Shown piece by piece: positions 5,889 through 32,000 of a stretch of 32,000 bases of DNA. Under the pieces are notes generated by a model. It had not been told where the DNA came from. It searched no databases and saw only the letters and a program-made list of their open reading frames with translations. A program made the position numbers and the translations under genes. The DNA is from Halalkalibacterium halodurans. Lineage in GTDB: Bacteria > Bacillota > Bacilli > Bacillales > Bacillaceae_D. The stretch is from positions 1 through 32,000 of the forward strand of contig NZ_SNUY01000035.1 of the NCBI RefSeq assembly GCF_004376175.1. The letters are read 5' to 3'. Every line of letters starts with the position of its first letter. Within the stretch, counting starts at the first letter, position 1.

Positions 5889-6086
5889 CTAAGATTCTGA
5901 AGCGCGCTCCAATACTCGCTTTAGCTTTTTTGTAAATTCCTTTCGAGGGAGGAGGACGCTATGTCCACAGCCGAGACATTTCATTCGGATATCCATTCCC
6001 ATCCGAATAATCTTCCAGCGATTTTCACCACAAGGGTGCGGCTTTTTCATTTCCACGACATCGTGAAGATCGAATTCCTTTTCCAA
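5889..6086 (-). CDS. yyzM: DUF951-family small protein (YyzM-like, Cys-rich)
   Basis: The motifs VEMKKPHPCG.NRWKIIRMGMDIR.KC.GC.HSV match my recollection of B. subtilis YyzM. The start was trimmed to the TTG at 6086 (SD AAAGGAGG 7 nt upstream). Confidence 0.8.
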   Translation of the reverse strand: MEKEFDLHDVVEMKKPHPCGENRWKIIRMGMDIRMKCLGCGHSVLLPRKEFTKKLKRVLERASES

Positions 6087-6181
6087 CTTACGGCCTCCTT
6101 TTCTCACGTTTCAACTCTCATAGATGAATAGTATTATACATGATTCGAAAAAGAAAAGGAAAAGAGATTTCCCTTCGTTCC

Positions 6182-7207
6182 TTATGACCGCTGCACGAGC
6201 CTATGGTGAAAAATCGGATAGAGAAGAATCGCTGCAAACACATAAAGATTTAAGATACCGTACAGCGGATACAATACGGCGATAAGCGTAGAAAATCCAA
6301 ACGTGGTTAATGGCACCATAAAGCCTAGCAAGGTTAACGCAAGGAGCCAGCTTGGCCAATTTAAAACCGCTCCCATTCTTGAAGACAATCCGAAAATCCC
6401 AGCTGCCGCCGTCGTGTAAATGGCAAGCCATAATAAGCCCGACATGACGAGAACCATGTAGTATGGGTAATGCTTCATAATGGCAAACAGAGGAATCTCA
6501 TAGACGACGAGATCACCTGCTACTTGAATGAGAGATTCATTGTATAAAAACGAAATCGCCCCAAGAATGAGGCCACTGCCGATACTCGCCACCCAAATTT
6601 CCCCCTGGTGACGAATGCGGTGGCCGACCGCCCCCAACACAGCCACAAGAGGCAAAATATTTAAAGCTGTAAACGTTAGAGCACTTGGCCAATTGCCTTG
6701 CTGGGTAAAATCAATCGTAATCGGGAAGCCAAGAAGGGACTGAAAGACGAAAAGGACACCTAACAAACAAAAGATCAAAATTGGAATAATGATCGCGTTC
6801 ATCGTCGTCATTCCTTCACTTCCGCGTAAAAATAACAAGACCACCATCATCATTAAAATGAACACTCCACCCCAATACGGGATATGAATGACTTCTAAAG
6901 TCGCTCCCCCACCAGCGAGCATGACAACAGTCGTTGTAAACAAGTAGAGAAAAATCATACCATCATAAAGCTTTGCCACCTTTTTTCCCATTAAAGCATG
7001 CAAAATCGGTATGTAATGGGTGGATTGTTGGTTATAGCTAATCGTCATAATCACAGCACAGCATACCGAGAATAATACGGCAAACAATCCAATAGCCAGT
7101 CCACTTTCAGGGCCAAAAAATTGCCAAAGCTCCCGGCCAGAAGCATATCCTGCGCCAATCATAGTTCCGATAATGAGAAACATCCATTTACACCCGTTCA
7201 CCCACAT
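6182..7207 (-). CDS. YkvI/YyaD-family polytopic membrane protein
   Basis: 341-aa multi-TM protein with the N-terminal motif IGTMIGAGYASGRELWQFFG typical of the YkvI family. It occupies the position of yyaD in the B. subtilis origin region. Confidence 0.75.
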   Translation of the reverse strand: MWVNGCKWMFLIIGTMIGAGYASGRELWQFFGPESGLAIGLFAVLFSVCCAVIMTISYNQQSTHYIPILHALMGKKVAKLYDGMIFLYLFTTTVVMLAGGGATLEVIHIPYWGGVFILMMMVVLLFLRGSEGMTTMNAIIIPILIFCLLGVLFVFQSLLGFPITIDFTQQGNWPSALTFTALNILPLVAVLGAVGHRIRHQGEIWVASIGSGLILGAISFLYNESLIQVAGDLVVYEIPLFAIMKHYPYYMVLVMSGLLWLAIYTTAAAGIFGLSSRMGAVLNWPSWLLALTLLGFMVPLTTFGFSTLIAVLYPLYGILNLYVFAAILLYPIFHHRLVQRS

Positions 7208-7306
7208 AGCTCGCTCGCTCCTTACTGTGCTCGTAATAAAAGTTCAACGTATAGAAAGGAAAATATATCCGTATACTGTTACTACTATGGCAAAGGAGCT
7301 TGCATT

Positions 7307-7957
7307 ATGAATGGAAACCGATTCTTCTCAAAAAAGCCACCTCCGTTCCGCGTTCATATGGACGACCCACAAGCAAGTGATCAGCTGGTGGAGCAGTTAC
7401 TCACTCATGTTTCTTCCTATCGGCACCGCGAGCTCGTCATTGTCTGCATCGGCACCGATCGTTCGACTGGAGATGCTCTCGGACCGATTGTCGGGACAGC
7501 ATTAGCGAAAGAAAGCTTAAACTGCTTTCATGTGTACGGTACGTTAGCCGATCCTGTTCATGCTGTTAATCTAGAAGAAAAACTAAAATTGATTGAAAAA
7601 AAGCACCGACGGCCATTTATTATCGCCATCGATGCTTGTCTTGGGAAACTAAGTAGTGTCGGGAAAGTTTCTCTTGCAGCTGGGCCCGTGCAGCCAGGAG
7701 CAGCCGTCAATAAAAAGCTCCCAGCAGTAGGAGATGTCCACTTGACAGGGATTGTGAATATCGGTGGTATGATGGAATATTTCGTCCTGCAAAACACAAG
7801 ACTGCATACTGTCATGCAGTTGGCTGACACGATTTCATCTTCCTTGGTAAAACTAGATCAACAGTTCATCAAGCTAACCGAAAAACAGCGAAAGTCTCAG
7901 ACAATTCTTCAATCCCTCGGGCTCTCATTTCAAGCTGGCAAAACGGAGAGTCAATAG
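7307..7957 (+). CDS. yyaC: spore protease YyaC (GPR-like)
   Basis: The motif VIVCIGTDRSTGDALGPIVG...IIAIDACLG is characteristic of YyaC. The start was trimmed to the ATG at 7307 (SD AAAGGAG 8 nt upstream). The upstream part of the track ORF overlaps the divergent neighbour. Confidence 0.85.
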   Translation: MNGNRFFSKKPPPFRVHMDDPQASDQLVEQLLTHVSSYRHRELVIVCIGTDRSTGDALGPIVGTALAKESLNCFHVYGTLADPVHAVNLEEKLKLIEKKHRRPFIIAIDACLGKLSSVGKVSLAAGPVQPGAAVNKKLPAVGDVHLTGIVNIGGMMEYFVLQNTRLHTVMQLADTISSSLVKLDQQFIKLTEKQRKSQTILQSLGLSFQAGKTESQ

Positions 7958-8001
7958 TGAAACGTAAACGCCTTCCGTATGTGGGAGGTGTTTTCTTTAT
8001 C

Positions 8002-8712
8002 CTAAAACGGGAAACCTTTATAGACGAACGTAACAAGGACGGCGACGATGACAAGACTCGGCAATAAATTAGCCACCCTAATGTTGACGACGTTTAACAA
8101 ATTCAAGCCAATGGCCACGATCATCACTCCACCTGTAGCGCTCATCTCCGTTATAAAGGAGTCCATCAAGGCGGTAGGAACGTATTGATCGATTTGACTC
8201 GCAAACAAGGCAATGCTTCCTTGGTACAACACGACAGGGATCGCTGAAAAGAGAACACCGATCCCTAATGTTGAAGTAAAGAGAATCGCTAAAAATCCAT
8301 CAAGCAAAGCTTTCGTCAATAAAACGGAATGGTCGCCGCGCAAGCCACTATCTAATGCTCCGAGCACAGCCATAGCCCCAACAACATAAATAAGGGTTGT
8401 CGTGACAAAGGCCGTTGCGATGGAGCCATCCTTTTTACCACCAACCTTCCTCTCAATCCAGCGCCCAAGGTGGTCTAGCCTTTTTTCAAGATTAAGTATT
8501 TCTCCAATGACCCCACCGATAACCAAGCTACAGATGACGATCAGAAATTGTTCCGTCTGAAGGCCCATTTTTACGCCGAGGAGAACGATGGCTAAACCGA
8601 TCGCCTGCATCACTGTTGTCTTTACTCGCTCGGGAATGTTTTTCACAAGCAACCCAATAAGTGCAGCAATCACAATTGCTGCACCGTTAACCACCGTTCC
8701 GATAAGTACCAT
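8002..8712 (-). CDS. DUF554-family membrane protein (YdfK/YqgA-like)
   Basis: 236-aa hydrophobic protein starting MVLIGTVVNGAAIVIAALIGLLVK, which resembles DUF554 proteins. SD GGGGAG lies 8 nt upstream. Confidence 0.75.
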   Translation of the reverse strand: MVLIGTVVNGAAIVIAALIGLLVKNIPERVKTTVMQAIGLAIVLLGVKMGLQTEQFLIVICSLVIGGVIGEILNLEKRLDHLGRWIERKVGGKKDGSIATAFVTTTLIYVVGAMAVLGALDSGLRGDHSVLLTKALLDGFLAILFTSTLGIGVLFSAIPVVLYQGSIALFASQIDQYVPTALMDSFITEMSATGGVMIVAIGLNLLNVVNIRVANLLPSLVIVAVLVTFVYKGFPF

Positions 8713-8738
8713 TTTTGTTTCTCCCCATTTCTTTCTCT

Positions 8739-9890
8739 TTATGATGTAAAGGCTTGTTGAATATCCATGACTGCTTGTAGTAATTGATCTACTTCCCTTT
8801 CTGTATTAAAAGGACCTACACTTGCCCGAATTAAACCAGTGTCAGTCGTCTGTAACGTCTCGTGAGTCATCGGGGCACAGTGGAGACCTGCACGAACTGC
8901 AATTTGATAGTGCTCGTCCAAAATAAGGGCAACCTCATGGCTATCGACACCGCTCAATCGAAAGGAAACAACCCCTAATCGTTTGCGAGGTAACGGAGGA
9001 CCATACACATCCACCTTTTGAGCACCAAGTCCTTTAAGCAGTCGCTCCGTTAGCGCCCATTCATGAGCAAAGATCTGCGCAACTCCGTTATCAAGAACAT
9101 ACTCAATCCCTGCTTTTAACCCCGCAATTCCTGGGGTGTTTAACGTTCCACTTTCATAGCGATCAGGCCATTGGCTTGGCTGATCAATCAACTCCGAGTA
9201 GCTTCCAGTTCCACCATAGGAGAGCGGTGTGAGCCCATAATCGTCTGCTACGATGAGCACCCCTGTCCCCTGGGGACCAAGTAAGCCTTTATGACCAGCG
9301 CAAGCAAGCATACTAATGCGATCCCGCTTCATATCAATGTCGATGACACCTGCTGTTTGTGAGGCATCAACGATCAATACAATGCCATGAGCTTCGGCCA
9401 TTTCCCCGATCTTCTCCAATTCAAGATACGCACCTGTGACGTTGGAGCCGTGAGAAAGAACGATCGCCTTTGTTTGATCGGTACAGGCTTGGGCAATCTT
9501 TTCCGGGGAAATAATCCCTTCTTCGTCTGGCTGAACGTACGTAATCACTAAGCCCTTTCGCTCACGGAGCTGTTCGAGGGGGCGACGAACAGAGTTATGC
9601 TCTAACGCTGTTGACACAACGTGATCACCCTCCTTAAATGGAAAGCCAAATAACGCTTGATTCAGGGCGCCGGTCGCATTTTGATAAAACCAAACATGTT
9701 TTTTACTTGGGGCATTAAACAATGTTTTAAGCAATTCCCGTGTTTCATCGATCGTTACCCGAGCTTGGGTTGCTAACCTATGACCGCCACGGCCAGGGTT
9801 CGCTCCATATTCGTTGACAGCAGCGACCATCGCTTCCGCCACTTCCTTCGGCTTAGGAAACGACGATGCAGCTTGATCCAAATAAATCAT
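8739..9890 (-). CDS. class-V aminotransferase / cysteine desulfurase-family protein (PLP-dependent)
   Basis: Starts IYLDQAASSFPKP. It has the PLP-lysine context AGHKGLLGPQGTG and a conserved RAGLHCAP with a candidate catalytic Cys. SD GGAGGA lies 7 nt upstream. Confidence 0.85.
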   Translation of the reverse strand: MIYLDQAASSFPKPKEVAEAMVAAVNEYGANPGRGGHRLATQARVTIDETRELLKTLFNAPSKKHVWFYQNATGALNQALFGFPFKEGDHVVSTALEHNSVRRPLEQLRERKGLVITYVQPDEEGIISPEKIAQACTDQTKAIVLSHGSNVTGAYLELEKIGEMAEAHGIVLIVDASQTAGVIDIDMKRDRISMLACAGHKGLLGPQGTGVLIVADDYGLTPLSYGGTGSYSELIDQPSQWPDRYESGTLNTPGIAGLKAGIEYVLDNGVAQIFAHEWALTERLLKGLGAQKVDVYGPPLPRKRLGVVSFRLSGVDSHEVALILDEHYQIAVRAGLHCAPMTHETLQTTDTGLIRASVGPFNTEREVDQLLQAVMDIQQAFTS

Positions 9891-30599: not shown

Positions 30600-31409
30600 T
30601 TATATGCCAAGGATTTGCTTCTTTTTAGCGTTAAATTCTTCTTCGGAAATGATGCCATCATCCAGTAGTTCTTTATATTTTTTAAGCTCATCAGCACCAG
30701 AGGTAGACGATGATTGAATTTGCGGCGCATACAATTGGTTTTGGTACGATTCAATCAAAGCCTTTGCCCTTTTAAAGTCTTCGAATTGAGCATCATTAGC
30801 AATGCTAATTGTATTTTGATCATCGAGTGCATTGAAGGTGCTCCTGCTTTGATTTTCAAGCGACCCTTGGAACGTAAACTGGATATATCCAACTGTTATT
30901 TTTCCCATTTTTTTTAATTGGATGCTACTAATTGAACGAATACTTATCGTCTTTTCTCCTCGACCTCTCCTATGGAGCCAATTATAAATAATCTTTATTG
31001 CCTCAGGTGTAACGATTAACGTCCCATTCTTCCCTTCAAAAACATCCTCTCGCCATCCTTCTCCTTTTTCGTTTTGTTCACTTACTAGTTTTTGCTCATG
31101 TTGGAACGATTCTATTAATGCTTTTGCCTGTTCGAACTGTTTATATTGGGCTTCATCATTGATCATGATCGAATGTTCATCACCCATTGCAGCCAATGCA
31201 CCTTTTTTCTTTTTCGAGCCCTCTAGAATAAGTTGAATGTACCCTTGTGCCAAAAACCTTGGCTTTTTAAGCTCTATGCTCTGAATAGACTCAAGGATAA
31301 TCTCCTTTTCGCCTTCCCCTTTAGAGTGTCGATTGCCGTAGATGATTTTCACTGTTTCGGGGGTAACGACTATTGCTCCGTTCCAGCCTTCAAACATTTG
31401 TTCACTCAA
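30600..31409 (-). CDS. uncharacterised protein: two tandem DUF4429-like (bacterial PH-like) repeats plus a C-terminal SHOCT domain
   Basis: Internal duplication: residues 6-65 versus 124-183 are identical at 32 of 60 positions by hand count, and AKALIES recurs at 95-101 and 215-221. The C-terminal DELKKYKELLDDGIISEEEFNAKKKQILGI is SHOCT-like. TTG start with SD GGAGG 7 nt upstream. Confidence 0.75.
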   Translation of the reverse strand: MSEQMFEGWNGAIVVTPETVKIIYGNRHSKGEGEKEIILESIQSIELKKPRFLAQGYIQLILEGSKKKKGALAAMGDEHSIMINDEAQYKQFEQAKALIESFQHEQKLVSEQNEKGEGWREDVFEGKNGTLIVTPEAIKIIYNWLHRRGRGEKTISIRSISSIQLKKMGKITVGYIQFTFQGSLENQSRSTFNALDDQNTISIANDAQFEDFKRAKALIESYQNQLYAPQIQSSSTSGADELKKYKELLDDGIISEEEFNAKKKQILGI

Positions 31410-31488
31410 AGGAATTCCTCCTCTGCATCATTTCTCTATTTTTAATACTAACATATCTTGCATTTTTTAGATTGAATGATCTGATCGT

Positions 31489-31532
31489 TGGCACAGATCT
31501 GGCACAAACGAGGCACAATCCTGGCAGAGCAT
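31489..31532 (+). repeat. four direct (T/A)GGCA(C/G)A repeats at exactly 11-bp spacing
   Basis: TGGCACAGATC / TGGCACAAACG / AGGCACAATCC / TGGCAGAGCAT, starting at 31489, 31500, 31511 and 31522. Read directly from the sequence. Confidence 0.85.
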
Positions 31533-31745
31533 TTCGATATTTCCCTAGTAACATGATAGTAAGCCCAAAAACGAAAAATGAGCCATGCATAAAAAATGAT
31601 ATAGGTGGGGGCCTTATGATTTGATTCGCTCATTTTAACTAACGGTGGGTTTGAAAGGAGGCGGTAGGTGCTGTAGGAAAGTCTCTGTTGCAAACAAATT
31701 CGCTCGTAAACTTTAAGGACCATACTAAAATTAGGAGGAATTCAA

Positions 31746-32000
31746 ATGACAGAAAAGCGATTTGCAGGAACGAGAATCGAAGTAAATGGGATCGTGGTAG
31801 CGAAAATTACATCCTTTACACATTCATTAGAGGTTGAGGAAGCGGATGTAACTGGTTTAGGTGACGTTGACGAAGGCAGCTCGGTGTTCAGGCAAAAATT
31901 TATTGCATCTGCTATTGGAGAGACGGCTGCAATGGAAGGGGTTGTACTTGTAGATGATGCAGGGCAATCAGAGTTAAAACGTGTAGCTGAGTCTGGGCAG
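31746..32000 (+). CDS. phage major tail / tail-tube-like protein, N-terminal 85 codons (open at the window end)
   Basis: ATG at 31746 with a perfect AGGAGG 7 nt upstream, and an open frame to the window edge. MTEKRFAGTRIEVNGIVVAKITSFTHSLEVEEADVTGLGD...DDAGQSELKRV resembles the N-terminal pattern of siphovirus tail-tube proteins (lambda gpV-like G-T-x-[LI]...[DE]xDVT...D..GQ..L). The family assignment is from memory only. Confidence 0.55.
   Translation, partial: MTEKRFAGTRIEVNGIVVAKITSFTHSLEVEEADVTGLGDVDEGSSVFRQKFIASAIGETAAMEGVVLVDDAGQSELKRVAESGQ

Follow-up and report, generated by a model that had tools for sequence, protein, structure and literature searches.

The stretch of DNA analyzed here, a window of 32,000 nucleotides, covers the replication origin region of Halalkalibacterium (Bacillus) halodurans, with dnaA first and gyrB and gyrA after it. 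gyrA is followed by an HD-GYP gene and then, on the minus strand, by a DUF4429-SHOCT gene, which is divergent from a phage tail tube gene at the end of the window. Between the two lies a four-unit direct-repeat array (Table 1). A tail gene had been annotated downstream of the repeats in a first-pass annotation made from the sequence alone, and this is confirmed, although the gene starts at the ATG at 31746 and not at 31747. In six H. halodurans assemblies the tube gene is followed by two chaperone-like genes and by genes encoding a tape measure protein, a Sipho_tail protein (Dit), a Prophage_tail protein (Tal), and four tail or minor tail proteins. All ten genes are intact in the six assemblies, the operon contains no head or packaging genes in any of them, and no holin or endolysin/lysin cassette was found in it. 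The array therefore stands in front of a late (morphogenesis) operon.

Table 1. Positions of the features discussed in the text (window coordinates unless a locus is named).
Feature	Position	Strand	Comment
Divergent gene with two DUF4429 domains and a SHOCT domain	30600..31409	-	accompanies the tail operon in all relatives, 1-3 paralogues
Direct-repeat array, four 7-nt units, 11-bp period	31489..31532	+	predicted ArpU-family late-regulator sites; homologous arrays beside arpU at more than 40 loci
Unit 1, TGGCACA	31489..31495		GGCAC type
Unit 2, TGGCACA	31500..31506		GGCAC type
Unit 3, AGGCACA	31511..31517		GGCAC type
Unit 4, TGGCAGA	31522..31528		GGCAG type, promoter-proximal
Promoter-proximal unit with conserved extension, TGGCAGAGCATTT	31522..31534	+	takes the place of a -35 element (about -39 to -27 of the predicted start)
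Predicted sigma-A -10 hexamer, TAACAT	31549..31554	+	26 nt past the G of the last GGCA; offset conserved in homologous arrays
Predicted 5' leader, about 185 nt	31561..31745	+	RBS AGGAGG at 31733-31738
Tail tube gene, 5' part (139 aa in full)	31746..32000	+	first gene of a ten-gene tail-only operon that runs past the window
LexA boxes of Shouchella-type modules	L007 9867-9878; L011 9861-9872; L015 9886-9897; L019 1062-1073; L021 3375-3386		also L025 9953 and L026 9952

The divergent gene matches two uncharacterized phage families (PHROG 2700 and PHROG 888) and may serve in immunity, release, or regulation, and its paralogues in relatives lie, for example, at 6046-6927 and 8923-9783 of locus L007 and at 7066-9783 of locus L008. 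Its promoter must fall at 31423-31488, directly adjoining the array. Two H. halodurans strains have IS elements (ISL3-type and Transposase_mut-type; L004 12181-13398 and L006 1516-2751) inserted beside the HD-GYP gene and the SHOCT gene. Because of these insertions the locus is variable between strains, while the array itself is identical.

The array reads TGGCACAGATC TGGCACAAACG AGGCACAATCC TGGCAGAGCAT. The coordinates of its units, together with the output of Tandem Repeats Finder (31489-31526, period 11, 3.5 copies), bear out the first-pass description of four repeats at a period of exactly 11 bp. The bare heptamer TGGCACA occurs at background frequency in the window (3 matches, 2.9 expected). 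The third of these matches lies at 31246-31252 on the minus strand, inside the SHOCT gene and about 240 bp from the array, and is compatible with chance. The spaced motif GGCA-N7-GGCA is found three times in the 32 kb, where 0.5 would be expected, and every time it is within the array. The array is the one chain of at least three GGCA units at period 11 in the window, in agreement with the earlier remark that nothing else in the window looks like it, and no such chain was found at any other period from 6 to 15. In 300 first-order Markov simulations of the window the mean number of chains of at least three units was 0.01 and no four-unit chain was obtained. Identity within the species is uninformative, since the six H. 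halodurans assemblies agree in practically all of the intergenic sequence and not in the array alone.

Relatives of the module provide the comparison between genera. Tube proteins with 74-78% identity were found in the Shouchella clausii group, in Bacillus sp. JCM 19041, and in several metagenome or IMG/VR contigs; more distant tube homologues sit within complete prophages. The tail-only relatives share one layout, in which one to three SHOCT genes on one strand are followed by an intergenic region, the tube gene, and the same tail genes. Scans of viral and metagenome sequences with the tube protein returned only Shouchella-type modules and complete phages, and no further module of the H. halodurans type. 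The modules of the relatives occupy chromosomal sites different from that of the H. halodurans copy, and the Shouchella module is flanked by host genes on both sides. Since the same module is found elsewhere in Shouchella and JCM 19041, the origin-proximal position, which had been remarked on in the first-pass annotation, is incidental. Three phased units of the form (T/A/C)G(G/A)CA, again with a period of 11 bp, precede the tube gene in the tail-only relatives (for example TGGCAGAATCT TGGCAGAAAAA CGACAGAGAAG), compared with the four units of the window. Because every tail-only relative keeps its three phased units in surroundings that have diverged, the phasing is conserved across genera, which was a check proposed in the first-pass annotation.

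Just past the SHOCT genes in Shouchella and JCM 19041 lies a gene of 137-138 aa that belongs to the ArpU family ("phage packaging/lysis transcriptional regulator"). The assignment is based on matches to TIGR01637 (74-100 bits, with a cutoff of 43) and to PHROG 248 ("transcriptional activator"); RinA and sigma-factor region 4 were also matched, but less strongly. In S. clausii an Amidase_3 gene adjoins arpU. Additionally, the tail promoter of every Shouchella-type module has the Bacillus LexA (Cheo) motif GAAC-N4-GTTC, without mismatch, in the interval that separates its last unit from the -10 hexamer (Table 1). This is the sole GAAC-N4-GTTC motif in each 20-kb Shouchella-type locus; a second box is located just upstream of arpU in two species. 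The box in the tail promoter indicates SOS control. As both a LexA box and arpU accompany the array, the Shouchella element is predicted to be under SOS and ArpU control and is tailocin-like in appearance. In Shouchella sp. 1P01AA (L027 10001-13400) the tail operon has been deleted, with the break near the first repeat (TTTAACATGGGTTTGTGGCAAGAATTC), and arpU and three SHOCT paralogues have been kept. It follows from this loss of the operon at the array that tail-only modules can decay.

The leaders of the Shouchella modules have two further elements. One is a conserved 5' hairpin, GTGTAGC...GCTACAC (L007 9896-9925), which has almost no covariation support. The other, GTGCCGGCAC, is palindromic and places two GGCAC cores in inverted orientation about 40 nt before the RBS (L007 9948-9957). 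Both have equivalents in L011, L015, L019, L025, and L026, and both are absent from the window.

The association between the repeats and ArpU extends well beyond the tail-only modules. A scan with an ArpU alignment, using one genome per species, gave 64 loci, of which the 59 outside Shouchella (1.0 Mb) were used for a test of the array. Exact GGCA chains (at least three units, period 11) were found 20 times in these 59 ArpU-encoding Bacillaceae loci. All 20 are on the arpU strand and no more than 7 kb downstream of arpU, and none was found elsewhere or on the opposite strand. When one mismatch per unit was allowed, arrays were recovered at about 38 of the 59 loci and also in phage phi105. The phage arrays consist of three to five TGGCAG or TGGCAC units at a period of 11 bp, are all downstream of arpU and on its strand, and lie in front of terS/terL or of a gene for a scaffold protein or a lysin. 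Across 38 distinct arrays the consensus reads TGGCAGA-N4-TGGCAGA-N4-GGCAGAGCATTT with TA..AT at +26 to +31 from the G of the last GGCA, or in its fuller form TGGCAGA.tttTGGCAGAAt.A.GGCAGagcATTT, followed by gtTAttATggTA.TAag. At +26, +27, and +31, the bases T, A, and T are each shared by 33-35 of these arrays. Not all members of the ArpU family have the motif, as among distant cultured phages no array was seen by eye in the region just after arpU of GBSV1 and none was found in A16R4 in the scan.

Two other observations were made on these loci. Of 45 phage arrays (L029-L087, L099, L102, and others), 35 have a terminator-like hairpin with a T-run no more than 130 nt downstream of the -10 hexamer; it usually starts 20-30 nt past the hexamer (for example L054 14654+); among random windows, such a hairpin was found in 81 of 600, and at that position in 15 of 600. 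The window has no such promoter-proximal terminator, nor do the modules of the S. clausii group and of the JCM 19041 type, and the Shouchella-type loci L019, L025, and L026 keep just a weak version of it. Quiles-Puchalt et al. (PMC3753634) inferred a terminator in a late-promoter region from the absence of read-through. It is a possibility, suggested by the positions of these hairpins, that ArpU-type regulators act in part like lambda Q, by antitermination at a promoter-proximal terminator. The second observation concerns many unrelated IMG/VR contigs (L089-L166; for example L097 513+, L112, and L135), in which AAGAAG-rich repeats come after three to eight GGGCACAGCAA-type units with a period of 11 bp. 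These loci yielded no ArpU homologue, and their array appears to be an element separate from the ArpU arrays.

The window matches the phage pattern at its promoter-proximal end. The last unit is exactly GGCAGAGCATTT, is identical to the GGCAGagcATTT of the 38-array consensus, and aligns with those of loci L054, L038, L057, and L067. It is followed by TAACAT at +26 to +31, the same offset as in the 38 phage arrays. The bases after TAACAT are GATAGTAAG, as in Halalkalibacter prophages, and at L029 and L071 the same bases follow TAAGAT/TATGAT. On the basis of this match the predicted -10 hexamer was placed at 31549-31554, and the position of the hexamer would put the transcription start near 31561, in which case the array would span about -72 to -33. 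TAACAT is a weak -10 hexamer and lacks a TG extension. A scan for promoters and terminators returned neither a sigma-70 promoter nor a terminator at 31300-32000. As the predicted promoter has no -35 element, this null result is expected and is not an argument against a -10 hexamer found by homology. The first-pass statement that no convincing sigma-A -35/-10 pair is present thus stands for the pair, although a -10-like TAACAT does occur at the conserved offset. An RNA element was considered for the leader and ruled out, since no Rfam match was found at 31300-32000 and a leader sequence of 193 nt folds no better than shuffled sequences (z = -0.37).

The sequence of the repeat unit was found to follow the sequence of the regulator. 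In a comparison of ORFs and arrays at loci L007-L187, the residue after a conserved Ser at the start of the predicted recognition helix of ArpU tracks the fifth base of the unit. None of the 42 array-bearing loci that encode an S-E-R helix has a majority of GGCAC units; 37 have mostly GGCAG units and five, all of the Shouchella type, are mixed. GGCAC units are present at 11 of 11 loci, from four lineages that include phi105, whose ArpU has an S-H-R, S-P-R, S-Q-R, or S-D-R helix (some GGCAC loci came from a DNA pattern search, and none of the ArpU proteins there with a readable helix was S-E-R). A different pairing was observed in Geobacillus phage PK5.2 (L247 3962-4005), which has the helix S-E-S-K and four TGACGGA units with a period of 11 bp right after arpU, with the same downstream geometry as the other ArpU arrays. 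The variable residue is presumably a base-contacting position, judging from an alignment with sigma-70 region 4.2. Because the window has three GGCAC units and a proximal GGCAG unit, the activator predicted for it would not be of the S-E-R type found in Shouchella.

An activator gene was looked for in H. halodurans itself. When every ORF of the window and of the 20-kb H. halodurans loci (L001-L006) was searched with hmmsearch, none was ArpU-like. No H. halodurans ArpU was present among the 64 loci of the alignment scan, in which the two peptide patterns used would miss H-type proteins, or among the best 120 of 747 profile-search matches. A look-up of a variant tube protein (P0001), intended to extend the locus, gave no match. 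Strain C-125 has been reported to have a strain-specific prophage (PMC11445130). The GAAC-N4-GTTC LexA box is likewise absent from the whole 32-kb window, and the sequence at the position that it takes in Shouchella is cATTTCGATATTTCc. As judged from these sequences, the H. halodurans copy keeps the ArpU part alone of the Shouchella-type control. Because no arpU gene lies within about 10 kb of the array, either the activator is supplied in trans or the promoter is a relic.

Late promoters of this kind have been described in phages of other Gram-positive hosts. A study by Quiles-Puchalt et al. in 2013 (PMC3753634) determined that late-operon expression requires no phage factor besides the Ltr proteins RinA, LtrC, and ArpU and that these proteins bind two to four direct 7-nt repeats upstream of it. 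For ArpU of phiFL2A, three repeats were required for activation and for the gel shift. The Ltr proteins are small basic regulators with a sigma region-4-like C-terminus, and their specificity resides in the C-terminal helix (PMC3753634). The window family resembles the staphylococcal and enterococcal Ltr promoters in its direct repeats of about 7 nt before a late operon (three to five units in this family), in the ArpU-family gene of the relatives, and in the co-variation of helix and unit. It differs from them in that the repeats of the window head a tail operon and not terS, and in that no ltr gene is nearby. In TP901-1, the Alt protein protects four imperfect direct repeats at -76 to -32 of the late promoter (as cited in PMC13123087), which is close to the span of about -72 to -33 predicted for the array in the window. 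Alt belongs to another Ltr family and has another repeat sequence. The tail module of H. halodurans is itself of the TP901-1/SPP1 type (Sipho_tail, Prophage_tail).

The operon can also be compared with F-type tailocins such as the Listeria monocins and the F-pyocins. It shares with them chromosomal genes for a non-contractile tail without head or packaging genes, and in the Shouchella relatives the LexA boxes add a link to the SOS response. In contrast, the H. halodurans copy has no LexA box, no nearby regulator gene, and, as far as the operon was searched, no holin/endolysin cassette. Monocins are controlled by a CI-like repressor with MpaR and have been reported to be independent of the ArpU-like protein LlgA (PMC7397523), from which it follows that tail-only elements need not use ArpU-type activators.

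Taken together, these comparisons suggest, with a probability that we put at roughly 80%, that the array is the activator-binding part of an Ltr/ArpU-type late promoter heading a domesticated tail-only siphovirus operon. That the array consists of activator sites for the phage-derived module had been offered in the first-pass annotation as one of two readings, and it is supported by the tail operon, by the homologous arrays linked to arpU, and by the co-variation of helix and unit. Against an ArpU model is the location of the array beside the divergent SHOCT gene, as such arrays usually lie just after the ltr stop codon.

The other first-pass reading was that one to three overlapping SigL promoters (TGGCAC-N5-(T/A)GGCA), served by an enhancer-binding protein, drive the tail operon. 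GG-N10-GC spacing is indeed present in each adjacent pair of units, the TGGCAC of the first pair leaves it one mismatch from the sigma-54 consensus, and H. halodurans presumably encodes SigL. The spacing is trivial, however, because GGCA repeats every 11 bp. All units of the window have G where the -12 element calls for T (position -14), so that no TTGC(A/T) element is present, and TGGCA[CT]-N5-TTGC[AT] is matched by 0 of 114 adjacent unit pairs in the 38 distinct homologous arrays. In several Shouchella-type relatives the promoter-proximal unit, which would have to serve as the -12 element, is GACA. The number of units varies from three to five, and unlike -24/-12 promoters the homologous arrays are made of repeated units tied to arpU and to a sigma-A -10 hexamer at a fixed distance. 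An enhancer-binding protein near the locus was not found either, as there is no Sigma54_activat gene among the called genes within 10 kb on each side of the array. The sigma-54 promoter was rejected on these grounds and is the least probable of the readings considered. A site for a host regulator (for example an OmpR/PhoB-type response regulator) or a repressor operator for the SHOCT gene is scarcely more probable. Winged-helix response regulators typically bind direct repeats that are spaced at 11 bp and extend over the -35 region, and the array is just about 80 bp from the SHOCT start codon. Yet the conserved neighbours of the module include neither a response regulator gene nor a repressor gene, the motif and its geometry recur in dozens of unrelated prophages of many genera, always with arpU, and the unit sequence follows the ArpU helix. 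An iteron or origin function seems improbable, as no replication gene is present and the module of the relatives is far from oriC.

The main rival to an ArpU-type late promoter that can still fire is a relic of one, for which H. halodurans has no cognate activator, so that the array is silent and the tail operon is unexpressed or decaying. This is an unlikely explanation overall, but a good deal less so than a host-regulator site. The deletion of the tail operon at the array in 1P01AA shows that modules of this type decay, the LexA box of the Shouchella type is missing from the whole window, and the search for arpU was negative both in the surrounding 10 kb or so and in two wider, non-exhaustive searches. 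Decay would not be expected, however, to leave ten intact tail genes in six assemblies or four well-phased units, which is more than the relatives have. A coherent shift to the GGCAC class, with the canonical proximal unit and the -10 offset kept, is also unexpected under neutral decay. We consider the chances that the array is still in use to be roughly even.

If the array does act as an Ltr/ArpU-type late promoter, a small ArpU-family protein, whose helix-turn-helix resembles sigma region 4, would occupy the four units in several copies, all on the same side of the helix, and the last unit, TGGCAGAGCATTT, would stand in for the -35 element that the promoter lacks. Transcription by sigma-A RNA polymerase would begin near 31561, about 7 nt past TAACAT, and run through the tube gene and nine further genes. 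ArpU binding, the start site, and activation at the array are what we infer from the published work on Ltr proteins. With arpU lacking from the surrounding 10 kb or so and with GGCAC in three of the units, the predicted activator is a non-S-E-R ArpU that would be supplied in trans by a prophage or an infecting phage. A more specific and tentative version of this model, which we think has perhaps less than an even chance of being right and regard as doubtful at present, is that the tail operon is an orphan late operon that has lost its own ArpU and LexA box, retains a four-unit array of the GGCAC type, and fires only with a matching ArpU from a resident or infecting phage.

The ArpU/Ltr-type late promoter is a known kind of element. 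In the literature searched, no description was found of the TGGCAG/TGGCAC unit with its strict 11-bp period and GAGCATTT extension. Its sequence definition in Bacillaceae, the relation between helix and unit, and the activator-less copy on a tail-only operon appear to be new, as none of the three was found in that literature. The promoter can now be defined by three to five TGGCAG/TGGCAC units at 11 bp, a proximal GGCAGAGCATTT, and a -10 hexamer at 26 nt from the last GGCA, and the pairing of S-E-R helices with GGCAG and of S-H/P/Q/D-R helices with GGCAC is a first clue to specificity. Together these should aid the annotation of late operons and the design of orthogonal phage promoters. An odd repeat gains a testable mechanism, and a misleading sigma-54 call is removed.

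As there is no activator gene nearby, the question is raised of what switches the H. halodurans tail operon on. If the orphan model were true, the operon would be a phage-triggered producer of tails, acting as a tailocin, a decoy in phage assembly, or a donor of tails to another element, and would not be an SOS-induced bacteriocin. For the alkaliphilic Bacillaceae, the results point to a family of tail-only elements that is wired to ArpU and, in Shouchella, also to LexA.
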